A model generated the notes under the pieces. The model searched no databases. It saw only the letters and a program-made list of their open reading frames with translations, and was not told the DNA's origin. Position numbers and translations under genes: made by a program. Shown here one piece after another: positions 11,445 through 52,969 of a stretch of 64,000 nucleotides of DNA. The stretch is from a candidate division WOR-3 bacterium (GTDB lineage Bacteria > Hydrothermota > Hydrothermia > Hydrothermales > JAJRUZ01), in the NCBI GenBank assembly GCA_024277525.1, contig JAJRUZ010000008.1, positions 20,091-84,090 of the forward strand. The letters run 5' to 3'. The stretch's first letter is position 1. The number at the start of each line of letters is the position of its first letter.

Positions 11445-11720
11445 ATGCGCGGAAAAAGGAAGGAACTTATCGGTGCGGTTGTTTCAAACAAGATGGATAA
11501 AACCGTCGTTGTGCTTGTTGAACGACGGGTTCGTCATCCATTGTATAAAAAGGAAATAAAAAAGAGGAAAAAATTTTATGCCCATGATGAAAATAATGAA
11601 TGCAGAATAGGTGATATTGTGCGAATAATGGAAACACGCCCCCTTTCAAAGCTCAAAAGATGGAGAGTTGTGGAAATATTAAAAAGGGCTCCGGGTTTTA
11701 GTGAGGAAAAAGAGAAATGA
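11445..11720 (+). CDS. rpsQ: 30S ribosomal protein S17.
   Basis: 91-aa protein with the conserved S17 core ([24 protein letters not shown]); first gene of the cluster. Confidence 0.9.
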
Positions 11721-12085
11721 TACAGCAGCAATCAAGACTTAAAATTGCTGATAATACCGGTGCACTTGAAGTTATGGTGATAAGGGTTTTGGGAGGAAGT
11801 GCAAGAAAATACGGTTCGGTAGGAGATATTTGCAGAGCAACTGTCAAAAAAATCGGAACAGGTTCACAGGTGAAGGAAGGAGAAAAGGTATGGGTCGTAA
11901 TTGTAAGAACAAAAAAGGAAATAAAAAGAAAAGACGGGTCCACAATAAGGTTTGATGACAATGCAGGGGTTATAATAGACCCTGCGGGTGAACCCAAGGG
12001 TACAAGGGTTTTCGGTCCTGTGGCAAGAGAATTAAGGGAAAAAAGATTTATGAAAATTGTTTCACTTGCTCCGGAGGTTTGGTGA
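11717..12085 (+). CDS. rplN: 50S ribosomal protein L14.
   Basis: [16 protein letters not shown]...IRFDDNA; overlaps the rpsQ stop by 4 nt. Confidence 0.95.
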
Positions 12086-12405
12086 TGGCTGCTAAGATTA
12101 AAAAAGGAGACCAGGTAATGGTGATTTCGGGTGATGATAAAGGGAAAATAGGAAAAGTTATAAAGGTCTTTCCGAAGAACCAAAGGGCTATTGTTGAAGG
12201 AGTCAATATTGTGAAAAGGCACAGAAGATTTGTAAGTGCTGACAGACCTCACGGAATAATTGAAATGCCTGCTCCTGTTCACATTTCAAACCTTGCTCTT
12301 GTTTGTCCGTCTTGTGGGAAAAGGACAAGGGTCGGGTTCAGATTCGAAGGAGATAAAAAAGTGAGATATTGTAAAAAATGCAATGACACGATAGATAAGG
12401 ATTGA
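12085..12405 (+). CDS. rplX: 50S ribosomal protein L24 with a C-terminal zinc-ribbon (CPSCG...CKKC) extension.
   Basis: [11 protein letters not shown]... KOW domain; the ATG overlaps the rplN TGA. Confidence 0.9.
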   Translation: MAAKIKKGDQVMVISGDDKGKIGKVIKVFPKNQRAIVEGVNIVKRHRRFVSADRPHGIIEMPAPVHISNLALVCPSCGKRTRVGFRFEGDKKVRYCKKCNDTIDKD

Positions 12406-12406
12406 T

Positions 12407-12976
12407 ATGGCGAGATTGCTTGAACATTATAAGAAAAATGTAATTCCGAAATTAATGAAAGAATTTAAATATAAAAATCCGTTTGAGGTCCCTAAAATAG
12501 AGAAAGTGGTTGTAAATGTAGGATACGGTGAAGCGGTAAATGATCCGAAATTAATAGAACTTGTTCAAAAAGAACTTGCTCAGATTACAGGACAATGGCC
12601 TTGTATAAGAAGGGCAAGAAAGCATGTTGCTGCATATAAGGTAAGAAAAGGAATGCCCATCGGTGTGAAGGTTACATTGAGGGGAAAAAGGGCTTACGAA
12701 TTCCTTGACAGAACAATAACATTTGCACTTCCGAGGGTAAGGGACTTCAGGGGATTAAAAAGAAATTCTTTTGATGGAAGAGGGAATTATAATTTCGGAC
12801 TCGAAGAACATATTGTTTTTCCGGAGGTGGATATAGATAAAGTGAAAGTTCAGTTCGGGATGGACATAGCAGTTGTAACTACTGCAAAAACCGATTATGA
12901 AGCATTAAGGTTACTTGAAGAACTCGGATTTCCGTTTGAAAGAAAAAAGGAGGTGAAAAGTGGCAAGAAAAGGTAA
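12407..12976 (+). CDS. rplE: 50S ribosomal protein L5.
   Basis: 189-aa protein with conserved L5 motifs ([29 protein letters not shown]). Confidence 0.95.
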
Positions 12977-13148
12977 ATTTATGAGATGGTTAATGTATGA
13001 ACCGAAATTTAAGGTCAGGTACAGGAACAGATGTAAGAGATGCGGAAGACCCAGGGGTTATATAAGGAAATTCGGTTTGTGCAGGATATGTTTCAGAGAA
13101 CTCGCTGTTCAGGGTTTGATTCCCGGTGTTAAAAAGGCAAGCTGGTAA
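12960..13148 (+). CDS. rpsZ: 30S ribosomal protein S14 type Z (zinc-binding); GTG start.
   Basis: 61 aa: [25 protein letters not shown]...GVKKASW. Confidence 0.9.
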
Positions 13149-13149
13149 A

Positions 13150-13545
13150 ATGGTAAATGATCCTATAGCGGACATGCTCATAAGAATAAAAAATGCTGTA
13201 ATGAGAAGAAAAGAGGAAGTTAAAGTACCCCATTCAAAGTTAAAAGAAAGAATTGCCCAGATTTTAAAGGATGAAGGATTTATTGAGGAATATAAAATTG
13301 CGGGAGAAGGTGTGAAAAAGGAAATAGTAATTCTTCCCAAGTACGACAATGAAGGGAATCCTGTTTTAACGGATGTAAGAAGGGTTTCAAAGCCGGGAAG
13401 AAGGATATATGTCAAAAAAGATAAAATTCCTTGGGTTAAAAACGGTACGGGAATTGCAATTATTTCCACCTCAAAGGGTGTTGTTACCGACAGGGAGGCA
13501 AGAAGATTAAAAGTGGGCGGTGAAGTCTTATGTGAGGTATGGTAA
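13150..13545 (+). CDS. rpsH: 30S ribosomal protein S8.
   Basis: MVNDPIADMLIRIKNA...; the internal start at 13150 fits better than the ORF-track start at 13126. Confidence 0.9.
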   Translation: MVNDPIADMLIRIKNAVMRRKEEVKVPHSKLKERIAQILKDEGFIEEYKIAGEGVKKEIVILPKYDNEGNPVLTDVRRVSKPGRRIYVKKDKIPWVKNGTGIAIISTSKGVVTDREARRLKVGGEVLCEVW

Positions 13546-13546
13546 A

Positions 13547-14098
13547 ATGAGTAAAATCGGCAAAAAACCGGTTTTGATTCCCGAGGGTGTAAATATAAGG
13601 CTTGAAGGGAGGAAACTGATCGTAAAAGGACCGAAAGGAGAACTTTCCCTTGAAATTCATCCTGAAATAGAACTTGAAATAGATGAAAAAGAAATAAGGG
13701 TTAAGAGAAAAAGTGATGAAAAGTTTGTCAGGGCAATGCACGGCACAACCAGATCCCTTATTAACAACATGATTAAAGGAGTAAAAGAGGGTTTTTACAA
13801 AGAGCTTCTTGTGGTGGGTACGGGATATAAGGCTGATTTAAGGGGAAGGGAGCTTATTCTTGATGTAGGGTATGCCGAACCTAAGAAATATATTTTGCCG
13901 GAGGGTATAAAGGCTGAGGTGAAAAAGGAAGGAGCAAATTTCAAAATCAGAATTGAGGGAATTGATAAGCAAAAAGTTGGACAAGTTGCTGCTGAGATAA
14001 GAAAAATCAGGGAGCCTGATTTATATAAAGGAAAAGGTATAAGATATGCTGATGAAGTGATTAAATTAAAACCGGGTAAAGCAGGAGTGGCAAAATAA
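13547..14098 (+). CDS. rplF: 50S ribosomal protein L6.
   Basis: [21 protein letters not shown]...; the start is internal to the listed ORF. Confidence 0.9.
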
Positions 14099-14475
14099 TG
14101 GAAAGGGAAGAAAAAGTATTAAGGAGAAAAAGAAGGCGTTTGAGAGTAAGAAAAAAGGTATTCGGAACACCTGACAGACCACGACTTTGTGTATATAAAT
14201 CTTTGAAGCACATATATGCACAAATTGTGATAGACCCCCCGCTCGGTCCTTGTAAGGTTCTAACAGGTGCTTCTACCCTTTCCCCTGAAATCAGAAATGA
14301 GGTCAAAAGATTAAAAGGGAAAATAGAGAAGGCAAAACTTGTAGGGAGATTAATAGCAGAAAAGGCTTTAAAATTAGGGATAAAAAAAGTGGTCTTTGAC
14401 AGAGCAGGATATAAGTATCACGGAAGAGTAAAGGCTTTGGCAGAGGGAGCAAGGGAGAAAGGACTTGAATTTTGA
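14098..14475 (+). CDS. rplR: 50S ribosomal protein L18.
   Basis: 125-aa protein with a basic N-terminus ([12 protein letters not shown]) and the conserved L18 C-terminus ([22 protein letters not shown]). Confidence 0.9.
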
Positions 14476-15620
14476 GAATATCTCTAATCTCACAGAATTT
14501 TGATAAATATTCAAATGGTGAATCGCGGACAAATTACGAAATAGCAAAATATCTCCTTTCAAAAGGGCATGAGGTGCATATTTACGCATATAAAATTGAA
14601 AAGGAACTCTTTGAAAAAGGCTCTAAAATTTACAAAGTACCTTTAATAATAGAAAGACCCGCTATTTTAAAAAGCATCATTTTTTTTCTATGGGTATCTT
14701 TGATTATAAGAATGAAAAAGAATAAATATGACATAATATATCAATCCGGACCATCGGCATTTGTATCTCATAATTTAAATGTGTGTCAGTTTTGCCATTC
14801 AGCATACAGAAAAAAAATATTGAAATTTAAATTTCCCATCCTAAGAAAAATTTATTATTACATTAATTATACAGTAGCATCTTTCATGGAAAAGATCGTT
14901 TATAAGAAAGCCAAAATAATAGTTGCTGTTTCAGAAAAAATAAAAAAAGAACTTATCAAGTACGTAAAAATAAAAAAAGATAGGATCGTAATAATACATA
15001 ACGGAGTGGATATTGAAAAGTTTACTCCCAAAAAAGCAAATGAAAAGTCGGTATTATGCAAAAAATTAAACATAAATGAGAATAAAAAAATATTTTTATT
15101 TGTAGGAGACTTGAATTCTCCGAGAAAAGGATTTTTAAATTTGATTAAGGTGTTTGAAGATTTGGAGGAAAATTGCATTTTATTAGCTCTGGGAAAATAT
15201 GAAAGGGGTATTTTTCATAAATTAGTGGAAAAAAAGAATTTAAAAAGAAAAATTATTTTTCTCGGTTTTCAAAAAGATACCCCCTTTTTTTACAGATCAG
15301 CAGATTTTATGATATTTCCTACTTTTTATGACCCTTGTCCGCTTGTTGTTATGGAATCTCTTGCAAGCGGTACCCCCTGTATTGTATCACATTCACGATA
15401 CTGCGGCAGCACCGAAATTATAGAAGACAAAAAAGAAGGCTTTATAATAAAAAATCCTCATAATATAGAAGAAATAAAAGAAAAAATTAATTATGCAATA
15501 ACTTTAAACAAGAGAGAATATTTAAAGATGTGCTTTAATGCCCGTAAAAAAGCTGAAAATTTTTCTTGGAATAAAATCATCGAAAAATATTACAAAACAT
15601 TGTTATCAAGAAAATGTTAA
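14472..15620 (+). CDS. Glycosyltransferase family 4 (GT-B). TTG start overlapping the rplR stop (TTGA).
   Basis: The N-terminus resembles GT4 ([10 protein letters not shown]...[24 protein letters not shown]). The C-terminal EX7E-type region reads [22 protein letters not shown]. Confidence 0.8.
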
Positions 15621-26592: not shown

Positions 26593-26674
26593 TCCTTTAT
26601 TGTTTTTTTCAATTTCTCATTGTATAATAAATTCACGGGTTGGAGCCCCTTTTAATTCTATTTAAAAAATAAAA

Positions 26675-27997
26675 ATGACACAACTTGAATATGCAAAAAA
26701 CGGTAAAATTACGGATGAAATGATTTTTATTGCAAAGGAGGAGGGTAAGAAACCCGAGGAGATAATGGAACTTGTTGCTTGTGGAAGGGTCGTTATTCCG
26801 CGAAATATAAATCACACGAATCTTGAAAAATTTTGCGGAATAGGTGAAGGTTTAAGAGTTAAGATAAATACGAATATCGGAACTTCTTATGAATATGTAA
26901 ATATTGAGGAAGAAATTGAAAAAGCAAAAACTGCGATAAAATACGGAACAGACACTTTGATGGACTTATCCACGGGCGGAGACCTGAAGTTAATAAGGCA
27001 GAAGATTCTCGAAATCTGCACCGTTCCCTTGGGCACGGTTCCGATTTATGAGGTTGAATTTAAAGTTGCAAAAGAGAAGGGTTCTATTTATGAAATGACT
27101 GCTGATGATTTATTTAAAGTAATTGAAGAACACGGAAGACAGGGAGTTGATTACATAACGGTTCACTGTGGAATCACATGGGAAACTTTAAAGAGATATC
27201 AGAATTCAAAGAGATTAACAGGTATCGTTTCAAGGGGAGGAGGTTTAATTGCTGCCTGGATGCTTGAAAACAGGGAAGAGAATCCGCTTTATAGGTATTA
27301 CGACAGATTGCTTGAAATTGCAAGGGAATATGATATGACACTTTCACTCGGAGACGGTTTAAGACCGGGGTCACTTCATGATTCAACCGATAGGGCTCAG
27401 ATTGCAGAGCTTATGATAATCGGGGAACTTGTTGAAAAGGCAAGAAAAGCAGGGGTTCAGACAATGGTAGAAGGTCCCGGGCACATTCCTTTGAATGAAA
27501 TTGAGATGAATGTTCAGATTCAGAAAAAATTGACAAATTATGCTCCTTTTTATATTCTCGGAATGGTTCCTGCGGATGTTGCGGCGGGTTTTGACCACAT
27601 TGCAGGGGCAATAGGCGGAGCGGTTGCAGGATGGCATGGTGCTGATATGTTATGTTATGTTACACCTGCTGAGCACCTCGGACTCCCTACGATTGAGCAC
27701 GTAAAACAGGGGGTTATTGCCTTTAAAATTGCTGCTCATATTGCAGATATCGCAAGAGGAAACAAGGAAGCAATTGAGAGAAACAAAAAAATGAGTGAAG
27801 CGAGGTATAAATTGGATTGGGAGAGACAATTTGAACTTGTTTTATTCCCTAAGGAAGCGAGGGAGATTTACAATCAGAGAAAAAGCGGGACAGAAGCATG
27901 TTCAATGTGTGGTCCCTTTTGTCCGATGAATCTTGTCGAAAAGACCTTAAAGAAACACAAAATAGAAAAATTTGAAGAAAAAAAAGTGAAAATTTAA
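26675..27997 (+). CDS. thiC: Phosphomethylpyrimidine synthase ThiC.
   Basis: 440 aa with ThiC hallmarks, including the C-terminal CxxC-X4-C radical-SAM-like cluster (CSMCGPFCPM). Confidence 0.9.
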   Translation: MTQLEYAKNGKITDEMIFIAKEEGKKPEEIMELVACGRVVIPRNINHTNLEKFCGIGEGLRVKINTNIGTSYEYVNIEEEIEKAKTAIKYGTDTLMDLSTGGDLKLIRQKILEICTVPLGTVPIYEVEFKVAKEKGSIYEMTADDLFKVIEEHGRQGVDYITVHCGITWETLKRYQNSKRLTGIVSRGGGLIAAWMLENREENPLYRYYDRLLEIAREYDMTLSLGDGLRPGSLHDSTDRAQIAELMIIGELVEKARKAGVQTMVEGPGHIPLNEIEMNVQIQKKLTNYAPFYILGMVPADVAAGFDHIAGAIGGAVAGWHGADMLCYVTPAEHLGLPTIEHVKQGVIAFKIAAHIADIARGNKEAIERNKKMSEARYKLDWERQFELVLFPKEAREIYNQRKSGTEACSMCGPFCPMNLVEKTLKKHKIEKFEEKKVKI

Positions 27998-34088: not shown

Positions 34089-35317
34089 ATTAATCCAAGT
34101 TTTACATATATTTCTTTAATTTGTTTTCCTTTTACATCCCAGGTGTAATATTTTTTTATCCTCTCTATAGCACCCTTACTCAATTTCATCCTGAGGTTTT
34201 CATTCTCTACAAGACTTAAAATTGCTTTAGCAAGGTTCTTAACAGTATCTTCATAAGAAGTTATATCAACTTTAATACCACAGGTTTCATCTACCATTTC
34301 TCCTGGCCCTCCATAATTCAAGCATATCACAGGTAATCCACAACTCATGGCTTCCAAAATTACCATTCCTGCTCCTTCAAAACTGGGATACAAAAAAATA
34401 TGTGAAGAAGAATAAATTGACCAAAGAGACCTTCTATCCATCCATTTCAAAATGGTAACTTTTTCTTTTAATTTATTTTTTTCGATATATCTCAGAATAT
34501 TATTCTTTTCTTTCCCTTCTCCTACCAAAATAAATCTTAAATTTTTATCGCTCTCTTTTAAAGCAAGTCTGAATGCATCTAAAGCAACAAATATTCCTTT
34601 CCATTTTAAAAATCTTCCCACAAAAAGAAGTTTAATATTTTCTGAATCTCTTCTACTCTTATAGTCTATAGATTCTACAGCAATTGCAGGTATTATTTCA
34701 ATATATTTTTTTTTCACATATATTTTTCTGTAGCTCTCCTTATTAATAACTATAACCGCATCCGCTAATTTTTTAGTTATAATAAAAAAAGGATTTAAAC
34801 GAGAAAAATCACGAAATTTTATTTTTATTTTTTCAATGACCTTATCTAAATAATTCAGTAAGAATCGAGAAGGAACTTCTGGATGACTTCCAATAGGTCC
34901 CCATATAAATCTCAAATGTTTATATTTAAGTTTAAGAAGAGAGAGGTAACAAGGTGTATAGTCATTTACAAAAGTTACGTGATGTATTGCGGTTATATTT
35001 TCCAGATTTATTATTTTGGGTATTTTAAAAAGAGCATAGATCTGCCACAGGTGATAGTATAATCTTACCCCTTTTTGTTTTTTCTTCCAAAATCTTATAT
35101 ATTGGGGAAGATCTATATAAATAAAATTTATTCTTTTATTTGGGTAATTTTTTAAATAACTCTCAATTACAGTTCTGTTATTATCTCTTGTTATAACCCA
35201 AATTTCAGCAAATTCAGACATTTTCTTTGTCCAATTCCATCCCACCCCCGGTTCTGAGCCTTTGTTAGGTTCACAAGCATAAGCTACAACTAAAATTTTA
35301 TTTTTTTTGATTTTCAT
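34085..35317 (-). CDS. Glycosyltransferase family 4.
   Basis: GT-B with the C-terminal EGAGMVILEAMSCGLPVIC motif. Confidence 0.7.
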   Translation of the reverse strand: MKIKKNKILVVAYACEPNKGSEPGVGWNWTKKMSEFAEIWVITRDNNRTVIESYLKNYPNKRINFIYIDLPQYIRFWKKKQKGVRLYYHLWQIYALFKIPKIINLENITAIHHVTFVNDYTPCYLSLLKLKYKHLRFIWGPIGSHPEVPSRFLLNYLDKVIEKIKIKFRDFSRLNPFFIITKKLADAVIVINKESYRKIYVKKKYIEIIPAIAVESIDYKSRRDSENIKLLFVGRFLKWKGIFVALDAFRLALKESDKNLRFILVGEGKEKNNILRYIEKNKLKEKVTILKWMDRRSLWSIYSSSHIFLYPSFEGAGMVILEAMSCGLPVICLNYGGPGEMVDETCGIKVDITSYEDTVKNLAKAILSLVENENLRMKLSKGAIERIKKYYTWDVKGKQIKEIYVKLGLI

Positions 35318-36485
35318 TTATATAAAGTATTGAAAACACTAACGCTAATATAAACCAAAATATTCTCATTGTGAATAAACTCAACGTCACACCTCCAAGG
35401 AGAAGATTATAATAAGCTAATCTCACAGAATCCAAATTTTTTTTCTCTCTGGTAACAAGTTCCTTTAAAGGATAAAAGAAAAAAAATAATATTGCAAAAC
35501 CAAGAGGTAATCCCATAAAAGTTATAACCTCTAAATATAAATTATGCGGGATATAAAGCCCTTTTACTCAAATTTCTTCTCCACCTATCCCTATTCCTAA
35601 AGGGAACTGAAAAATTAATGTAAGATAGTATCTCCACAATATTGCTCGTGAATCCGCAAATATTTGTGCCTTTGATAATCGTTCCAAAATTAAATTAATT
35701 TGTTCTTTTGTAAAAGGAATGAACATTAATATCAAAATACCAGATAATAAAAACAGATTAATTAAAAAATATATATTTTTTTTTCTTAATTTCATTTTAA
35801 CATTAAAAAAAGACCTTGCACCAAAATAAATTATACTAAAAAATAAAATAATCAACCCTGTCCTGGAATATGTAAAAATAATAATCCCCGTGGTGAATGA
35901 TAACAGTATCAATCTCAAAATAAAAGACAATTCTTCAATATACAAAACCATAGAAAAAATTAATACCATATATAGAGCCAAATAGTTAGGATCAGAAAAA
36001 GATAAAATCAGTCTTTTTTTCCAGGGATTCCATTCGAATATTTCTAACTTAAAAAGAAAAGGTATAGCTAAAGTAGAGAAAAAACTATAAAGAAACCATT
36101 TTTGTATCTTGATAGGTGTAAGCATTCTCATTTTAACTAAAAATAAAATTTCAAAAAAAAGAAGCAATGAAATAAAAAATCTACCTGAATGAACCATAAG
36201 GCGGAAAAAAGAGTTGATATTGGAATAGAAATTCGAATGCATTAATAAAAGAAACATATTATAAATTACAAGAAAAGTAAAAAAAATAATAATTTTAAAT
36301 ATAATACCCCCAACGGGTATATACTTATACTTTTTATAATACACTAAAATAAAAACAAATATCAAGAAAAAAAGAGAAACAATGAAAACATCGCTAATTT
36401 TAAATATTAAAATATTAAATTCATCTCTTCTAAGGGGTAAAGTTAAAATAATAAAAAAAAGAGCAAAATTAATAATCTTTTTCAT
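35298..36485 (-). pseudogene. wzy: O-antigen polymerase/ligase-family (Wzy-like) membrane protein interrupted by a single in-frame TGA at 35568-35570.
   Basis: ORFs 35568..36485 and 35298..35516 are in the same frame, with 17 sense codons between them. Multiple TM helices; the IGIGGEE region is typical of Wzy_C. Confidence 0.5.
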
Positions 36486-45383: not shown

Positions 45384-45564
45384 TTTGTTTTCTCCTTAAA
45401 TAAAATACTACATCAAATATATTTATATTTTTATCCTAACACTTCCTTTCTCCTCTCCAAAAACTCCTCCCTATCATACAATATCCTAAATCCTGCTCCC
45501 TTAAGCCATAATGTATATTTTAAATTCTCAAGGGTTTTCTCTATTACATAAATATTATTTTTTC

Positions 45565-45747
45565 TTGATTTTATTTTAAAATTCTTCTTCTTTTTGTCAC
45601 TATTACAAGATAAAGTTCACCGTTTCTGGTGTCATTATATTTTTATAAATGTTCCGAAGGCTGCAAGGGAAATGAGATTTTTTCCATAGGTTGAAACAAC
45701 CTTCTTTTTTATTTGATTGAGTATGTTAGTTTTTTTCTTGGTTTTTA
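45565..45747 (-). pseudogene. Frameshifted paralog of the MNT-like mini-protein encoded at 49497..49793.
   Basis: Hand translation gives MKNLKTKKKTNILNQIKKKVVSTYGKNLISLAAFGTFIKI, a stop, then NDTRNGELYLVIVTKRRR in another frame. Compare IKKKIVSIYGDDLVSLVAFGPSIRTNFEEKEVYLVIVTK in the intact copy. Confidence 0.4.
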
Positions 45748-45998
45748 AGTTTTTCATGGGTTTTAATTAATTTGTTTTGATCTTATTATTAAATATAAAA
45801 TTTCCCATTTCGCATTCCGAATTCCGAATTTTCCTTTTCACCATTTTATCAATCCCCCTTTATCCCCCTTTTCTAAGCTGAGATCACCCATGATTTTTCC
45901 TAATAAATCACTGTATTACTTGTATAAAATTAAAAATGAAGTTATAATTCAGTCTTTAAAAAGATATTGTTAAATTGTCACATAAATGCGACCGCTAC

Positions 45999-46057
45999 AA
46001 TAATCAATCTTTTCTCGCTTTTCTTGCCCGTCGCGCCTTACCACACATCTCGCGGTG
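45999..46057 (-). repeat. Repeat-element copy in reverse orientation: GCGAGATGT..GCGCGACGG GCAAGAAAA GCGAGAAAA GATTGATTATTG.
   Basis: The reverse complement of 45999-46057 matches the GCGAGA-array plus GATTGATTAT terminus of the family. It lies immediately 3' of the HEPN gene. Confidence 0.7.
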
Positions 46058-46489
46058 TTATCCAATCTCCAAAATCTCCTTCACTTTTACAGAGAATTTT
46101 TCGGCGGACTTGAGCAGTTCTTCTGCTCCTGTTTCTGACCATTCATCATAATAATCTGCATTTTCCCTTAAAGTTTTTGCACGCTGAAAACTCTCCACCA
46201 AGTTTAAGTCCAGCTTACCTTTTTCCACATATAAAGCCCTTAATGCCACCATTAAACAATAATGGCTTTTTTCTCTATAATTCTCAGCATAAATAAGTGC
46301 TCTTGCAAAATGAAACATGGCATAATAAGCCTGAATTGTTGCCCATTTGAATTTTTTTCTTTTAAAAGAATCCTTCGCATCTTCAAGGTCTTTTAATCCT
46401 ATGTTGTATTCTTTTTCCACAAGATATTTTCCTCTTGAAAATTCTCTTAATTTTCTTTTCTTTAAACATTTTTCAAATTCAGGATTCAT
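46058..46489 (-). CDS. HEPN-domain protein (toxin of the HEPN/MNT pair).
   Basis: 143-aa all-helical protein overlapping the 3' end of the nucleotidyltransferase gene by 11 nt. Confidence 0.6.
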   Translation of the reverse strand: MNPEFEKCLKKRKLREFSRGKYLVEKEYNIGLKDLEDAKDSFKRKKFKWATIQAYYAMFHFARALIYAENYREKSHYCLMVALRALYVEKGKLDLNLVESFQRAKTLRENADYYDEWSETGAEELLKSAEKFSVKVKEILEIG

Positions 46490-47033
46490 GAGAGTTCCAC
46501 AGGGTGATACCGTTTTCTATTTCCCTGTAAAAAACAGGGTCTTTTTTCTTTATTTCCATAAATCCAATCTCGGTAACTAATATGGGCTTGATTTTTTTAC
46601 TTGAATTTATAGTTTTTTTAATTTTCGGAATCACATCCTTATTTCTTGCAATTATCACAAGGTCAATATCACTGTCTTTCCAGTTTTCTCCTCTGGATGC
46701 ACTTCCGAAAAGCGTTATTCTTATGGAATATTTTTTTATTTTTTGAACCAGGGGAAGAATATTAATTATGTTCTTTAAAACTTTTATCTGCTTAATTATA
46801 ATGTGATTGTAACTCAATGAGTATAAAAAAATACCTCCTTTTTTTCTCCTGGTGATTAACCCGTATTTACACAATTTTCTGAGAGCATAATTAATCGCTG
46901 ATTTTGAGAGTTTGATTTTTTTTCTTATTTCCTTTTCCGTAAATTCTGTTTCCGGATAATCTATAACATACTCAAGGACTCTTTGAACCGAAGTGGCAAA
47001 TACTATATTCTTCATTTCCAAAAAATTGGACAT
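46479..47033 (-). CDS. Minimal nucleotidyltransferase (MNT) with an N-terminal wHTH; antitoxin partner of the HEPN protein.
   Basis: Pol-beta NTase motif LFGSASRGENWKDSDIDLVII. Confidence 0.75.
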   Translation of the reverse strand: MSNFLEMKNIVFATSVQRVLEYVIDYPETEFTEKEIRKKIKLSKSAINYALRKLCKYGLITRRKKGGIFLYSLSYNHIIIKQIKVLKNIINILPLVQKIKKYSIRITLFGSASRGENWKDSDIDLVIIARNKDVIPKIKKTINSSKKIKPILVTEIGFMEIKKKDPVFYREIENGITLWNSHES

Positions 47034-47061
47034 CTATCCATTATAATGGAAAGTCATAAAA

Positions 47062-47180
47062 ATAATCAATGATTGAGTTTATAAATATGCGAGGCGGGCG
47101 AGACGAGTTTATTGGGTTTATCGGGTTTATAGAGTTTATTGGGTTTGTTGCGTTAATTGCGTTTGCTGTGTTCATTGAGA
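47062..47180 (+). repeat. Repeat element: AATCAATGATTGAG, TTTATAAATAT, GCGAGGCGG, GCGAGACGA, then 9-mers GTTTATTGG, GTTTATCGG, GTTTATAGA, GTTTATTGG, GTTTGTTGCG, TTAATTGCG, TTTGCTGTG, TTCATTGAG.
   Basis: Direct reading. Its AATCAA end (reverse complement TTGATT) together with the palindrome CCATTATAATGG (47038-47049) forms a -35/-10-like pair for the MNT-HEPN operon on the minus strand. Confidence 0.8.
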
Positions 47181-47221
47181 ACATATACGATGGGTTGTAT
47201 GAATGCATTTTGTTTCTTTAA

Positions 47222-47426
47222 ATATATTTATTGAATTCTTCAGGTGATATCTGTGCCTGTTTTAAAATGCCTCTTAAAGTTCCTGTTTTTAATTCTTTAT
47301 GAAGTGGAACAACACAACCCCTTTTCTCATTACCACATGACTGCCTCTTTGTCTTACTTTTTTAAATCCCATTCTCTGTAAAATTTTTATTACTTCTTCT
47401 CCTGAAAGTTCCCTAAGTTTTGACAT
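47222..47426 (-). pseudogene. hicA: hicA-like toxin gene with a frameshift in an A/G homopolymer region.
   Basis: Hand translation gives MSKLRELSGEEVIKILQRMGFKKVRQRGSHVVMRKG, then out-of-frame VVPLHKELKTGTLRGILKQAQISPEEFNKYI. Both halves match HicA, but no intact ORF of 60 aa or more is present. Confidence 0.45.
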
Positions 47427-47625
47427 CTATTTCAAAGGTGGTAATAAGGGGACGTCCTACTTCAGGATGTCCGAATTCTTCCAGATAAAGTTCTGTTGCT
47501 TCTTTTAAATTATTGATTGTTTCCTCTATGGTATAACCCTGACTCACTGTTCCAACTTCCGGACACTCGGCAACCCACATGTCTTCTTCTTTATAAACTA
47601 CTGCTGTAAATGTTTTTGTTTTCAT
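47413..47625 (-). CDS. hicB: HicB-family antitoxin (UPF0150).
   Basis: 70 aa, MKTKTFTAVVYKEEDMWVAECPEVGTVSQGYTIEETINNLKEATELYLEE. Confidence 0.65.
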   Translation of the reverse strand: MKTKTFTAVVYKEEDMWVAECPEVGTVSQGYTIEETINNLKEATELYLEEFGHPEVGRPLITTFEIDVKT

Positions 47626-47652
47626 AATTTTTATATTACACTCCCTTTAATT

Positions 47653-47669
47653 GTGAATGCAATATTCAC
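47653..47669. promoter_or_regulatory. Palindrome GTGAAT-gcaat-ATTCAC about 28 nt upstream of hicB; candidate operator.
   Basis: Perfect 6-bp inverted repeat read directly. Confidence 0.35.
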
Positions 47670-47757
47670 GCTTTACCACACATCTCACAATTTTATCAAT
47701 CAACGCAATAATCCCGACAAACACAACAAACGCGATAAACACGACTCGCATTTTTAA
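47660..47757 (-). repeat. Repeat-element copy in reverse orientation. The reverse complement reads TTGATTAAAAATGCGAGTCGTGTTTATCGCGTTTGTTGTGTTTGTCGGGATTATTGCGTTGATTGA.
   Basis: Direct reading; it shares TTACCACACATCTC with the copy at 46036. Confidence 0.7.
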
Positions 47758-47773
47758 TCAATCCCCCTTAATC

Positions 47774-47801
47774 CCCCTTCGCCAAAGGGGAGAATTTTTT
47801 T
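47774..47801 (+). terminator. Hairpin CCCCTT-cgcca-AAGGGG followed by AGAATTTTTTT (intrinsic-terminator-like, plus strand). It is part of a 34-nt exact duplicate of 49318-49351.
   Basis: Stem, loop and T-tract read directly. Confidence 0.45.
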
Positions 47802-47846
47802 ATTTCCTTTTTCACCGTAAACCCATCCACTCACCGTTTTGCTTTC

Positions 47847-47890
47847 CTCCTTTCTCGCCTTTCTCGCATTACCACCCGTCTCGCATTTTA
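47847..47890 (-). repeat. GCGAGA-array module in reverse orientation (reverse complement: AAAATGCGAGACGGGTGGTAATGCGAGAAAGGCGAGAAAGG); it supplies the last codons (MRDGW, stop) of the DUF4143 ORF.
   Basis: Direct reading. Confidence 0.7.
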
Positions 47891-49153
47891 ACCCATTTCC
47901 AGAAAGGTAATACTCTGCAGGTTATACCTTCTTTTTTTTCTTCATATTCCTGATCACGGGTTATTATTATTCCTGATTTTAGGTTTAAAAATTTACAGGC
48001 TTTTATAAGCCCTTCTATCTCCCTTTTTTTATTTTCTGAATTTATCTCCCATGTGACCTGGATTGCCTGCAATTTGCCATTATTTTTAACCACAAAATCG
48101 CATTCGCCATCTTTATTAAAATAGTATATCTCATATCCTTTTCTTTTCAGTTCAAGAAAAACCACATTTTCCAGCAACCTGCCGTAATCTTCGGATTTGA
48201 CTCTTTTTGCAAGACCTGTATCAACAAGATAAATTTTTGGGTGGATTCCTCATTCTTTTATAGGAAGATTCGGAAAAAATCCTGCTTTCGTATACGAGCA
48301 TGCTTTCAAGAAAATATCTGTAGTAGGAAAAAAGGGAATCTTTTGAAAAAGGGAATTTACCTTTATATTTTTTATAGAAAGAAATAAGGGAAAATCGGGA
48401 TGAAAAGGAGGAGAAAAGGTTCTCCTGCAGGGTTTTCAGCAGGGTTATATTTGTTATATTGAATCTTTCCACAAGGTCTTTGAAGAACATTGCATCAAGA
48501 TATTGGCTTAAAATCTTTTTTCTCATGAATTTTTCTTCAATAAAAGAGACCTCAGGGAAACCACCCCATTCAAGATACTCATTAATATAAGCTTTTAAAA
48601 TTGACTTTTTTCTCCCATAAATCTCTTTTGTTTCAAATTTTTTTGCTCTTAGAAATTCGGTGAAGGAAAAGGGGTAAACCTCATATGTCCATGCCCTTCC
48701 CCTTAAAGAAGCATGTATTCTGGAAGGAGTTATCTCCGAAGAGGAACCTGCAACATAAACATCTATGTTCTCCCTTTCAACCAGTCTCCTGACAAATTTT
48801 TCCCATCCCTTTATATTCTGTATTTCATCAAATAGAAAAATTACTTTTTTTTCTTTAACAAGGCGGGAATTGAGTTCAAAGAAAATATCCTTGATTTTTT
48901 CAAGGTCATCCAGGGTTATTCCCTCAAGTCTTTCATCTTCAAAATCTATATAAAGGGCTTTTTCAGGATTTTTTTTAAATACACTGTAAAGCACAAATGT
49001 TTTGCCACTCCTTCTGACTCCATAAATGACTTTAACTTTTTTGAGTTTTTGAGGGAAAACAATACCTTCCCTCTCTATTATATTTTTTATTTCATTATTT
49101 ATAAATTCTCTGCCCGTAAGTATTATTTCTTTTATTGTATCAGAACTGACCAT
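47869..49153 (-). pseudogene. COG1373-type AAA ATPase (AAA_14 plus DUF4143) split by a frameshift into 48221..49153 and 47869..48177.
   Basis: The N-terminal ORF has a Walker A (GVRRSGKT) and Walker B (VIFLFDEIQ). The C-terminal ORF is a DUF4143-like domain. The two are in different frames. Confidence 0.6.
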
Positions 49154-49217
49154 TTTATTTTGTCCTTTTCAGAAGTATATTTTAAAGAATTTTTGTCCTT
49201 TTTTCAAGGAAAATTTT

Positions 49218-49462
49218 GGTTTATAAAAAGGCGAGACTGGCGAGAAAAGTTATTTTCATATCTTTTATTTTTTCCTTTCTTGCGTTTCTCGCATTACAAC
49301 CCGTCTCGCAGTTTATTCAATCCCCCTTAATCCCCCTTCGCCAAAGGGGAATTTGTGCGATAAATCGCACCGCAACATAATCAATCTTTTCTCGCTTTTC
49401 GCGCACGTCTCGCCTTTCTCGCATACTTGTAACACGATAAACACGATAAATACGTTAACATG
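49218..49462. repeat. Cluster of repeat modules in mixed orientation. Forward GGTTTATAAAAAG, GCGAGACTG, GCGAGAAAAG (49218-49249). Reverse GCGAGA module (49276-49312). Hairpin duplicate (49318-49351). Palindrome GTGCGAT-aa-ATCGCAC (49354-49369). Reverse full element (49372-49462).
   Basis: Direct reading. The reverse complement of 49372-49462 reads ...TTTATCGTG TTTATCGTG TTACAAGTAT GCGAGAAAG GCGAGACGT GCGCGAAAA GCGAGAAAA GATTGATTATGTT. Confidence 0.8.
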
Positions 49463-49496
49463 TTTCACGGTTTTTGCTCTCACACTCTTCCGGTTT

Positions 49497-49793
49497 TCAC
49501 CATTTTTTTATTATGTCCTCAAAAAATTTGTCCTTGTCATAAAGAATTTTTAACTCCGCACCTTTGAGCCACAAATTTTTTATTTTAATGGATTCCGGCT
49601 CTTTATGGATGGTAAATATTTTATAAGGAGAAAAATTCAACTCCGCCTTTTTTTCACTGTTCTTTGTCACAATAACTAAGTAAACTTCTTTTTCTTCAAA
49701 ATTTGTCCTTATGGAAGGACCGAATGCAACAAGAGATACTAAGTCATCTCCGTATATAGAGACAATCTTCTTTTTTATTTTATCCAGCACCAA
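49497..49793 (-). CDS. Small MNT-like protein with a degenerate, probably inactive nucleotidyltransferase motif.
   Basis: LVSLVAFGPSIRTNFEEKEVYLVIV aligns to the hGSxxRG...DhDhhV NTase motif but lacks the catalytic residues. A decayed paralog lies at 45565-45747. Confidence 0.4.
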   Translation of the reverse strand: MVLDKIKKKIVSIYGDDLVSLVAFGPSIRTNFEEKEVYLVIVTKNSEKKAELNFSPYKIFTIHKEPESIKIKNLWLKGAELKILYDKDKFFEDIIKKW

Positions 49794-49860
49794 ACCCTTA
49801 TTACCTTTTTTTTCTTATAAAAACCGACATTTTTCATCAATTTACCTCCGATTTAATATT

Positions 49861-52338
49861 TCATTCTTTTCCATAATATTTTGAATAATATTTGTAATAA
49901 TAGTAATAATAATGGCTCCCCCTTTTCTTAGGAACCGCATTTATAACAACTCCTATGATATCGGATTTTGAAGACAATAAAATATCCCTTGCTTCCTCCA
50001 CTTCTTTAAAGTTTGTTTTTCCGTATCTTATTGTGAGAATTACACCATCCGCATAATTTGCAATATAAGCAGAATCCGCAAATAAAAGAACAGGAGTCCC
50101 GTCAATTATTACATAATCATATTCCTCTTTTAAATCCTTAATTAATTTTTTCATTTTTTCTGATTCAAGGAAAATTAAAGGATTTGCAGGAATTTTCCCA
50201 ACAGGTATCACATCTATTTTTATATCAAGCTTATCATTATGATGAGAAACATCCGTTATTGCATTTTCAATTTTTTCCTCCCCTGTTAATATGTCAAAAA
50301 GACCGGCTTCCTTTTTTATTTCAAAAATATCGGTTATATGTCCTTTTTTCTTTCTGAAATCACTGTCAATAACAATTACTTTATTTCCTTTTGAGGCATA
50401 AACAAATCCGAGATTTAACGCTACAAAGGTTTTTCCTTCTTCAGGACTCGGTGAAGTGACATAAATTACTTTGTATTTTTTATCAGGATGTGCAAATTCA
50501 AGATTTATTGAAAGCTTTCTGAAAGCCTCAAACTCCGCTGAAGAAAGGTCAGGTTCGATTATTTTTAATTCGGAACTCAAACTGTTCTTTTTAAAAATTT
50601 TACTAAAAAATCCATTCCGGTTATTTTCAATTAAAGGTATTGAGGTGTAAACAGGAAGCCCTGTTTTTAATTTTAAGATTTCAGGGTCTTTAACTGTATT
50701 ATCAATATATTCTACAATAAAAACCGTAAATCCACCTATCAATATGCTGATTATAAAAGAAAGAATAAGAATCAAAAGGGGCTTTCTTGCATTCACAGGT
50801 CTGTATGAAACAAGGGGAGGGTTTATAATTTTTAAGTCCGAAGTAACACCTGCCTCCTGTACCCTTGTCTCTTCAAGCTTCTAGGCAAAAAAGGTGTATA
50901 ATTTTTCCGTTGTCTCTCTATCCCTTTCAAGTCTTGCAAGCTGTAACTCATCCTCGGGAACATTTTCCAATTTAAGCTTTAAAGCGCTTATTTGACTTTT
51001 AACACTCTGGATTTCTGTTTTTATTGTTGATATTCTTTTTGTTATTTCTTCTTTCATCTGTTCTCTTAAGCCTTCAAGTTTTGCCTTTACCTCATAAACT
51101 TTCGGATGATTAGGAGAATAGGATTTTAATCTGCCTTTAAGTTCTGCCTCTGTTTGTAATAATTGAGAGTAAAAATTCTGAAGAACCGGATCCGAAAGAA
51201 GCGCAGGAGCAAAGTTAACGGTTGTGTCAAGTTCCTTTCCCTTTGCAAGATACTCTCCCAAATTTTTTAAAATACTCTGCTCAATCTCGAGTTGACTTTT
51301 TTTTGTTTCAAGACTCGAAATTTGGGAAATTAATGCCTGAGTAGAAGCTTTTAAATCCGCTATTTTTTTCTGCTCTTTAAAAGTCTTTATTTTTTCTTCC
51401 AGTTCAGAAAGTTTATTTTTATAAAATTCGAGTTGGGACTCGATGAATTTTCTGGACTGAATGTATTGAAGGGATTTTTCTTTTATATCTTCTTTGATTA
51501 TTAAGTCGGAAAGCACCTTTGCTATCTCATAAGCATCCTGAGGATTTCCCCAGAAAACATCTATTCTTAAAATCCCGAGAAGATTAACCCCCGGAAAGAT
51601 TGTTTTTGCAGTTACAAGCTTTTTTGAGGCTCCTTCTCCTGAAAAAGGAACACCTCCGAGTGCAGGCTCTTTTTCTATTTTATCAGCCTCCAAAACCTTT
51701 ATTGAGAGAGAATTTCTCAAAGCAAGGGCTATTCTGTCTCTGGGATAAAATGTTATGGTATAAGTTCTCTCTTTAAACTCTTTCTTTAAAGGAATTACCT
51801 TGAACTTCAAAAAGCCGATATCAAGAGATTCACCAATTTTGCCATCCAGAACCTTCTTACCATCACTTGTAAAAAGCTCCACACTATTATTTGATATTTT
51901 TAATTTAAAAGGACCGACGGGGTTCTCAAAATCCCTTATAATTTTTGTTTTTATCTTTATATCAGGCAATCCATCTTTTATATGGGTATAAAGTGAAAGG
52001 GAATCCGCAATTTTTTGAGCAAGCCTGACACTCAGGAGGTTTGATATAACTCTTTGTGTCACAGAACCGATTTGAAGGGTGGGAGTCTCCTGAACCGGTG
52101 AAAAAACACCTTCAATGGGTTTTTCATTTGAAACCCCTATGTCAAAGGTTGCCTTATAAATGGGAGTATAAGGTTTTAGAAATTGATAGAGGAGTATTAT
52201 AAAAAATGTAACCACTGCGGTTGTAATAAAAAGCCCCAGCCTTCTCAGGAATATGTTTATTATATCGTTTAAACTCAAAGTTTCTTCTTCATATGAATTT
52301 TGAAAATAAATATGATTTTTGATTTTACCTTCTTTCAT
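49861..52338 (-). pseudogene. wzc: Wzc/GumC-type polysaccharide co-polymerase fused to a BY-kinase. It has a single in-frame TAG (50881-50883) between the periplasmic/coiled-coil domain (50881..52338) and the TM2 plus kinase part (49861..50796).
   Basis: The same reading frame holds across the stop. The 28 codons between the ORFs encode the conserved pre-TM2 motif (DLKIINPPLVSYRPV). The kinase has Walker A (SPSPEEGKT) and a C-terminal Tyr cluster, YYYYYYKYYSKYY. Confidence 0.6.
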
Positions 52339-52339
52339 T

Positions 52340-52969
52340 TTATTTAAGTCTCTGAAGTGTTATGTAAAAATTTAAGACCGAGGCTGTTAAGGCAAGGGCA
52401 TTCAGCACAAGCCCCCAATTAATGGTGAACTTCTCCGGTACGTACACTACATCACCGGGCTTTAATTCTATGTTTTTGACAAAATCTCCTTTTTTAAGTA
52501 TCTCTTCAACATTCACCTCAAATGAGACCGGGTTTTCTTTTCTGAATATAACAACTTTTACCTTTTTAAGGTTAGCCTTCTGTGTGGGTCCACCTGCAAG
52601 TGCAATGTAATCGGTGAGCTTCAATCCCCTCTGGTACTCCACAGCACCGGGTCTTAAAACCGCTCCGAATACCGAAACATAAGGCAAAGAAGGACTTTTT
52701 AATATTACGGAAACAAGGGGATGAGTGAAATATTTTGAGAGCTTTTCCGAAATAAGCCTTGATGCTTCCTCGGTTGTTAAACCAACAACCTTTACTTCAC
52801 CTATAAGGGGAAAGGATATTGTTCCGTTTCTCATCACCATTACGGTCCTTGATAGATTTTCCTCACCTACAACAAGAATTTCAAGAACATCCCCTGTTTC
52901 AATTTTATATGTTGAAGATTGCGAAAACAAAGGAAAAAATATAAATAAAAATATCAAATTTTTTTTCAT
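52340..52969 (-). CDS. wza: Polysaccharide export protein (Wza-like: Poly_export plus SLBB).
   Basis: Signal peptide plus YKIETGDVLEILVVGEE...; a second beta-grasp-like domain (KPGDVVYVPE). Confidence 0.7.
   Translation of the reverse strand: MKKNLIFLFIFFPLFSQSSTYKIETGDVLEILVVGEENLSRTVMVMRNGTISFPLIGEVKVVGLTTEEASRLISEKLSKYFTHPLVSVILKSPSLPYVSVFGAVLRPGAVEYQRGLKLTDYIALAGGPTQKANLKKVKVVIFRKENPVSFEVNVEEILKKGDFVKNIELKPGDVVYVPEKFTINWGLVLNALALTASVLNFYITLQRLK

Follow-up and report, generated by a model that had tools for sequence, protein, structure and literature searches.

An in-frame TAG codon interrupts a wzc-type co-polymerase/kinase gene in the exopolysaccharide locus of a candidate division WOR-3 bacterium

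A single in-frame TAG codon interrupts a Wzc-type gene in the 64-kb stretch of DNA from an uncultured candidate division WOR-3 bacterium that we analyzed (referred to here, at its full length, as the window). Translation of the minus-strand frame 52338-49861 gives 485 codons, the TAG, 339 further codons and a terminal TAA (Table 1). This bears out the original prediction, which had described a 485-aa ORF stopped by TAG at 50881-50883 and a frame continuing beyond it into TM2, the kinase and a tail. All the sequence details quoted in that prediction (i.e., the KLEETRVQEAGVTSDLKIINPPLVSYRPV segment, TM2, Walker A and the YYYYYYKYYSKYY tail) are indeed present, and the tyrosine-rich C terminus of wzc, SHYYYYYYKYYSKYYGKE, is a putative autophosphorylation cluster. 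In a six-frame scan of the 64-kb window, wzc was the sole case of a single TAG lying between two open segments that each run for 80 codons or more. Since the two pieces of the gene, of 485 aa and 311 aa, are recorded as separate singleton proteins on one NCBI contig of 93,929 bp, the stop belongs to the deposited assembly. The upstream part is identical to entry P0024 of our protein search.

Table 1. Position of the interrupted wzc, its motifs and the neighboring features, in window coordinates.
Feature	Position	Strand	Remarks
wza-type outer-membrane polysaccharide export gene	52340..52969	-	Poly_export 81.7 bits, plus SLBB domains; immediately upstream of wzc
wzc upstream part, 485 codons	50884..52338	-	TM1, periplasmic coiled-coil domain, first half of GNVR motif
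TM1 of wzc	52239-52177	-	upstream part
First half of GNVR motif, LARLERDRETTEKLYTFFA	50940-50884	-	end of wzc upstream part
In-frame TAG of wzc	50883-50881	-	plus strand reads CTA
Conserved segment KLEETRVQEAGVTSDLKIINPPLVSYRPV	50880-50794	-	immediately 3' of wzc stop
TM2 of wzc	50781-50713	-	downstream part
Walker A of wzc, SPSPEEGKT	50454-50428	-	downstream part
Walker A' of wzc, VIVIDSDFRK	50379-50350	-	downstream part
Walker B of wzc, YVIIDGTP	50115-50092	-	downstream part
Tyrosine tail/cluster of wzc, YYYYYYKYYSKYY	49911-49873	-	downstream part
wzc downstream part, 339 codons + TAA	49861..50880 (codons 50880-49864)	-	rest of GNVR with proline motif, TM2, kinase, tyrosine cluster
Island, 4.5 kb	45384..49860	-	separates wzc from sugar-nucleotide and biosynthesis genes
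AAA_14/DUF4143 ATPase gene, frameshift near 48240, context CCACCCAAAAA	47869..49153	-	one-base repair restores DUF4143 profile 2-159/160
hicA toxin gene, frameshift near 47330, context AAAAGGGG	47220..47426	-	repair restores HicA_toxin 1-58/58, 68.2 bits
Polysacc_synt flippase	43075-41576	-	Wzx component of locus
wzy, O-antigen/EPS polymerase, in-frame TGA at 35568-35570	35301..36485	-	Wzy_C domain

As for family membership, several profiles extend over the stop without a break. The upstream segment is matched by positions 297-393 of TIGR01005 and the downstream segment by positions 400-735. When the stop is replaced by X, the Pfam GNVR profile covers residues 466-541 (profile positions 5-79 of 82) with a score of 34.6 bits, above its cut-off of 27.7, and the part after the stop scores 18.5 bits on its own. 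Since the profiles continue over the stop, the two segments are joined by homology and not by chance, and the view that one Wzc-type gene has been cut inside its conserved GNVR/pre-TM2 segment stands. The N-terminal part is matched weakly by Pfam Wzz (about 20-21 bits, below the cut-off of 25.5), and the upstream part also matches TIGR03007. The downstream part scores 146.6 bits against TIGR01007 (cut-off of 108.05), is matched by the NCBIfam equivalog profiles for Wzc and Etk from about position 394 to their end, and aligns with residues 347-720 of Escherichia coli K30 Wzc (7NHR; phmmer E = 1e-43), its kinase domain aligning with 7NHR, 3LA6 and 3CIO. The features expected of the family are thus present, namely two TM helices, a GNVR/proline motif, a kinase of the P-loop type bearing the three Walker motifs (A, A' and B), and a tyrosine cluster. 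What sets wzc apart is that PCP-2a proteins are made as one polypeptide, and a TAG stands here at codon 486. Judged by its sequence, wzc is a member of the Wzc/BY-kinase (PCP-2a) family by descent, predicted to yield no full-length product under the standard code.

Among 5.8 billion proteins searched, 164 homologs were retrieved; 120 of them are listed, and those that carry a name are mostly from candidate division WOR-3. Among the 120 listed, 119 are uninterrupted (771-1144 aa), the sole truncated entry being the 485-aa fragment of the window itself. In the listed homologs, the column that holds the stop is occupied by Glu (110), Gly (3), Gln (2), Lys (2) or Asp (2), and its flanks, LYTFFA-x-KLEETRVQEAGVTSDLKIINPP, are nearly invariant. 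In the alignment to 7NHR, the stop falls on residue N393 of E. coli K30 Wzc, which is ~35 residues short of TM2. The original prediction had treated the TAG as a nonsense codon, and comparison with relatives agrees, as a sense codon occupies the site in all five orthologous DNA loci: CAG in L001, GAG in L008 and L009, and GAA in L002 and L010. The closest relative among the matches listed (P0001, on contig L001, 78% identity) reads GCC CAG AAA where the window reads GCC TAG AAG. Given this CAG (Gln) in L001, the TAG is one C>T transition away. The base in question is plus-strand 50883, which is an A here; a G would give CAG (Gln) and a C would give GAG (Glu).

Comparators from the same species were sought in several collections. 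Except for the window's own fragments, the matches listed in the protein search include nothing above 78% identity, and a scan of GTDB genomes gave Ca. Hydrothermus pacificus as the only close relative (65%). In JGI metagenomes, no exact match was found to a 31-nt pattern in which the stop codon was replaced by NNN, and the sole find of a peptide-pattern scan was a 26%-identical relative. When compared with L001, the upstream and downstream parts of wzc show Nei-Gojobori dN/dS values of 0.09 and 0.066, respectively, with a saturated dS of 1.7-2.1, so that these values reflect past constraint and not constraint since the stop arose, and precise dating is impossible. The 339 downstream codons are free of a second lesion. 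Since the downstream half is undamaged and shows purifying selection equal to that on the upstream half, a constraint that would have acted over almost the whole of the divergence from L001, the stop is young, i.e., the lesion must be recent.

The gene lies in a Wzx/Wzy-type context, with wza, a flippase, wzy (broken) and glycosyltransferases. The transferases of the locus comprise five of the GT1/GT4 type, one GT2, and one initiating transferase (Glycos_transf_4). The stop codon of wza abuts the start codon of wzc, and a wza is found beside or near wzc also in L001, L002, L008 and L010. The claim that wzy carries a single nonsense codon as well proved correct, its TGA falling inside Wzy_C. 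Once repaired, wzy matches this profile across the stop (positions 3-148 of 149) with 36.2 bits, and the upstream piece alone scores 25.9 bits. A word-based search for the ancestral residue at the TGA matched only the window's own protein, and HMMER, run in full over 1.84 billion representatives, returned that protein and one match with E = 9e-4; with so few relatives, the ancestral residue is not recoverable. We also found, as had been predicted, that the locus is split by an island, which places 4.5 kb between wza-wzc and the biosynthetic genes. This island is absent at the matching position in L009 and L010, where wzc is followed directly by GT, wzx and wzy genes. It contains an MNT-like gene, an AAA_14/DUF4143 ATPase gene, hicBA, and an HTH-nucleotidyltransferase + HEPN pair (toxin-antitoxin-like modules), which are separated by shared intergenic repeats.

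Four inactivating lesions fall within 15 kb (35.5-50.9 kb), i.e., the TAG in wzc, the TGA in wzy, and the frameshifts in hicA and in the AAA_14/DUF4143 ATPase gene. Outside this region, no truncated Pfam domain was found among the Pfam-matching ORFs (~2/3 of ~40), on which ground we rejected pervasive assembly noise. Genes that are intact by Pfam coverage include those for ClpX, ClpP, trigger factor, SmpB, ThiC, ribosomal proteins L5/L6/L18 and cyanophycin synthetase. Lesions thus number 4 among ~17 genes versus 0 among 43 (Fisher p = 0.005), a rough figure that takes all 43 as intact; gene integrity was checked as Pfam domain coverage, and ~1/3 of the ORFs have no Pfam match. That four lesions cluster in 15 kb of accessory DNA is consistent with selection on the region being relaxed or negative.

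The original prediction had left a choice between locus-wide decay and an ON/OFF switch. The first part fits, the two frameshifts adding to the decay, but the second found no backing. No tandem repeat was detected at the wzc stop, and no inverted repeat pair closely brackets it. We consequently found no support for the possibility that wzc is a phase-variable polysaccharide gene, the change being a plain substitution with no repeat tract, invertible element or recoding signal. Since there is no switch element at the site, reversion would need a specific back-mutation.

A second wzc ortholog, that of Ca. Hydrothermus pacificus JdFR-72 (L002), is disrupted too, at a different site. Its reading frame shifts after SDPVLQSFY, and the residues SQ, which are present in essentially all homologs, are absent. 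The lesion appears to be a 13-nt deletion between CTTCTAC direct repeats. A close relative of this gene (P0002, 79-89% identical) is intact. With one wzc lesion in each of two MAGs, recurrent loss is suggested but not proved. We consider it doubtful that wzc knock-out is both recurrent and selected in the hydrothermal WOR-3 lineage, or else that the TAG allele is slightly leaky (through Gln read-through). Were this so, natural populations could be polymorphic for exopolysaccharide production, for example under phage or attachment trade-offs.

Several readings would spare the gene a loss of function. A natural split of the CpsC/CpsD type was rejected because the break in wzc comes before TM2, and natural pairs break after it. 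Positions 391-468 of TIGR03007 (498 positions) match residues 11-89 after the stop, which means that TM2 is part of the modulator in natural pairs, yet it is 3' of the TAG here. The original prediction had raised the case of homologs naturally split at this very position, but the other listed homologs show no such split (119 of 120 are fused). These facts also weigh against a real mutation with partial function, in which EPS would be lowered but not abolished, either because a near-cognate tRNA reads through the UAG or because the 485-aa fragment works with a TM2-kinase piece restarted at GTG 50796. We consider this improbable, although Gln insertion at UAG, known for E. coli, would restore the residue of the closest relative, and the downstream part is intact. 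Moreover, UAG followed by A, as in wzc, does not rank among the strong termination contexts of E. coli. A restart agrees with the 311-aa product predicted by the gene caller of the protein collection, but there is no convincing start codon downstream of the TAG. No in-frame ATG occurs within 130 codons 3' of the stop, and the first in-frame GTG (50796, 85 nt downstream) has no purine-rich or Shine-Dalgarno-like motif. Since a recognizable Shine-Dalgarno motif is found in only 14 of 40 window genes, its absence before this GTG is weak evidence and not decisive. The 141 nt of RNA around and after the stop are not more stable than shuffled sequences (z = 0.65), and the broken wzy would be a second block in the pathway. 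Programmed recoding, in which TAG is read as pyrrolysine or as a suppressor-inserted residue in the organism or in wzc, is scarcely credible and, within the window, effectively excluded. TAG is admittedly the rarest terminator there, ending 4 of 57 ORFs of at least 100 aa, plus hicB. However, as had been claimed, it is a genuine stop elsewhere, since at least four other genes in the window end in TAG (the K-channel gene, hicB and two others among them), and the TrkA_C domain of the K-channel gene ends 2 residues before its TAG. Neither a tRNA gene nor a match to an Rfam family was found in the 64-kb window, which leaves the suppression that had been envisaged without a candidate tRNA in this stretch. 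In addition, orthologs have Glu or Gln codons at the site, no other long coding segments in the window are separated by an in-frame TAG, and the second interrupted gene, wzy, uses TGA.

The main rival to a real wzc lesion is an assembly or base-calling artefact. The organism's wzc would then be intact, with CAG or GAG at the site, and the TAG, perhaps together with the other three lesions, would be an error in the consensus of an accessory region of the MAG that varies among strains and has uneven coverage. We hold this to be possible, although unlikely. The sequence is carried by one contig from one source only, and mixed-strain assemblies are least reliable in accessory regions. The perfect preservation of the downstream half, whose first 24 residues are the commonest sequence of the family, is also what an artefact would leave. 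Both frameshifts lie in or beside homopolymer runs (AAAAGGGG in hicA and CCACCCAAAAA in the ATPase gene), a typical error context, but no other Pfam-matching ORF is broken despite the many homopolymers in this AT-rich sequence. Furthermore, half of the four lesions are base substitutions, each of which happens to yield a stop, and it is uncommon for substitution errors to persist into a consensus. Finally, the L002 ortholog, which comes from an independent MAG, is broken by what seems to be a direct-repeat deletion, a natural type of mutation.

The reading that we favor, with a probability of about 0.6, is that a recent single-base nonsense change has created a loss-of-function wzc allele, within an accessory region that is decaying. 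One base change would have turned CAG (Gln) or GAG (Glu) into TAG in an otherwise intact full-length gene, and under the standard code translation would end at codon 486. As far as the biology of Wzc allows prediction, the resulting fragment would retain TM1 and the greater part of the periplasmic domain but lose the end of GNVR, TM2, the kinase in the cytoplasm and the tyrosine tail. It would probably be unable to build the octameric ring that couples Wzy-dependent polymerization to export through Wza. With wzc reduced to a fragment and wzy carrying a nonsense codon, the sequenced genotype probably has no working Wzx/Wzy-dependent exopolysaccharide pathway. A premature stop in wzc is a known kind of event, with no sign of a new mechanism, capsule-negative Klebsiella clones arising when wcaJ, wzc or rfaH acquires a frameshift or a premature stop (PMC9376106).

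For annotation, the two ORFs are better described as one disrupted wzc than as a chain-length determinant and a separate kinase, and metabolic or ecological reconstructions of WOR-3 bacteria are best made without treating the exopolysaccharide locus of this genome as functional. If the allele is real, it offers a small example, in uncultured thermophile-like bacteria, of the rapid capsule-like loss-of-function turnover seen in cultured pathogens. Beyond annotation, the wzc stop is of little importance.

The known systems to which wzc can be compared are of three kinds. Like E. coli K30/K-12 Wzc and Etk (PCP-2a; 7NHR, 3LA6 and 3CIO), it has two TMs, a periplasmic coiled coil and, ahead of TM2, a GNVR/proline motif; the cytoplasmic portion is a P-loop kinase that carries Walker A, A' and B and has a tyrosine cluster at the C terminus. 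As in E. coli, the gene has a Wza-type exporter for a neighbor and shares its locus with Wzx and Wzy. In contrast to E. coli Wzc, the WOR-3 gene is interrupted by TAG at the equivalent of N393, its match to 7NHR is distant, its periplasmic domain is barely recognized by Pfam Wzz, and its host is uncultured. On paper, the two pieces also resemble the membrane modulator and kinase polypeptides of split pairs, i.e., CpsC/CpsD and CapA/CapB in Firmicutes, EpsF/EpsG, and the PEP-CTERM pairs (TIGR03007/TIGR03018 and TIGR03017/TIGR03029). However, the modulator of a natural pair retains TM2 together with a short tail in the cytoplasm, and its partner kinase is a soluble protein with a start codon of its own, whereas the WOR-3 wzc breaks ~35 residues before TM2, in its most conserved motif, and has no proper downstream start. 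The closest parallel in kind of event is provided by the Klebsiella wcaJ, wzc and rfaH alleles (PMC9376106), in which, as is probably the case here, a nonsense or frameshift mutation inactivates a Wzy-dependent pathway in one step while the rest of the locus is intact; unlike those alleles, the wzc lesion described here is known only from the metagenome-assembled sequence of an uncultured thermophile-like lineage.

As for the wzc gene, the interruption in the window has a counterpart in a related genome. In Ca. Hydrothermus pacificus JdFR-72 (locus L002), the wzc ortholog is likewise disrupted, its frame shifting after SDPVLQSFY. Judging from the sequence, the loss of 13 nt between two CTTCTAC direct repeats would account for this shift and for the missing conserved SQ. 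A relative with 79-89% identity (P0002, 873 aa) is intact. We also observed small four-helix-bundle genes of the 23S_rRNA_IVP/bAvd type close to wzc in two WOR-3 relatives (L008 and L009); no wza was called in the L009 locus.

Other genes in the window are broken as well. An in-frame TGA interrupts wzy, the polymerase gene of the same polysaccharide locus, within the Wzy_C domain. The Wzy protein is a sequence orphan: when all 1.84 billion representatives were searched with HMMER, the only matches were the protein itself and one at E = 9e-4, so the ancestral codon at this TGA could not be inferred. The hicA gene and the AAA_14/DUF4143 ATPase gene are each frameshifted by one base, within or next to a stretch of identical bases, and in each case repair restores a full-length Pfam match.

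Elsewhere in the window, a ribosomal-protein run (L5, L6 and L18 identified by Pfam; L14, L24, S14 and S8 assigned from ORF position only) is preceded by opposite-strand Tad/Flp pilus genes and directly followed by a GT4 glycosyltransferase, the usual continuation, S5-L30-L15-SecY, being absent after it. This ending could reflect an unusual operon break or possibly a misjoin. TPP riboswitches are common upstream of thiC; at the gathering threshold, neither this nor any other Rfam family was found across the whole window, including the region upstream of thiC.

Coordinates of the features discussed (L002, Ca. Hydrothermus pacificus JdFR-72; L008 and L009, WOR-3 relatives)
Feature	Sequence	Position	Remark
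Ribosomal-protein run	window	11717-15620	
thiC	window	26675-27997	upstream region 26593-26674
wzy	window	35301-36485	TGA at 35568-35570
Island	window	45384-49860	wzc to biosynthesis genes
hicA	window	47220-47426	
AAA_14/DUF4143 ATPase	window	47869-49153	
AAGGGGGAT(T/A)AAGGGGGATTGA copies	window	45849-45870; 47758-47779; 49317-49338	
AAACCCAAT arrays	window	47105-47164; 47717-47742; 49431-49458	island spacers
wzc ortholog	L002	9980-12474	
CAAAAAACG array	L002	12056-12110	
AAACCCAAT array	L002	12536-12597	6.9 copies
23S_rRNA_IVP/bAvd-type gene	L008	9493-9900	between wza and wzc
23S_rRNA_IVP/bAvd-type gene	L009	7933-8328	~1.7 kb upstream of wzc

The island consists of four modules, all on one strand: an MNT-like gene, the AAA_14 ATPase, hicBA, and an HTH-nucleotidyltransferase + HEPN pair. 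These are set apart by related intergenic spacers of higher G+C, mostly 190-340 nt long (one is 674 nt). Three spacers share the motif AAGGGGGAT(T/A)AAGGGGGATTGA, and two also contain the hairpin CCCCTTCGCCAAAGGGG. The motif has no further copies in the window and is absent from all 11 compared loci. Repeated 9-mers of the GCGAGA type occur in the spacers too, as do arrays of a 9-nt tandem repeat (unit AAACCCAAT on the gene strand, ~6 copies). The same unit recurs in Ca. Hydrothermus pacificus directly downstream of wzc, where it precedes an ATPase gene. A different 9-nt unit, CAAAAAACG, forms an in-frame array within the kinase domain of that organism, encoding the peptide NANNAINPENPTNSINAINA. 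The island has no match in Rfam. In its overall organization, it resembles an array of cassettes with repeats at their boundaries.
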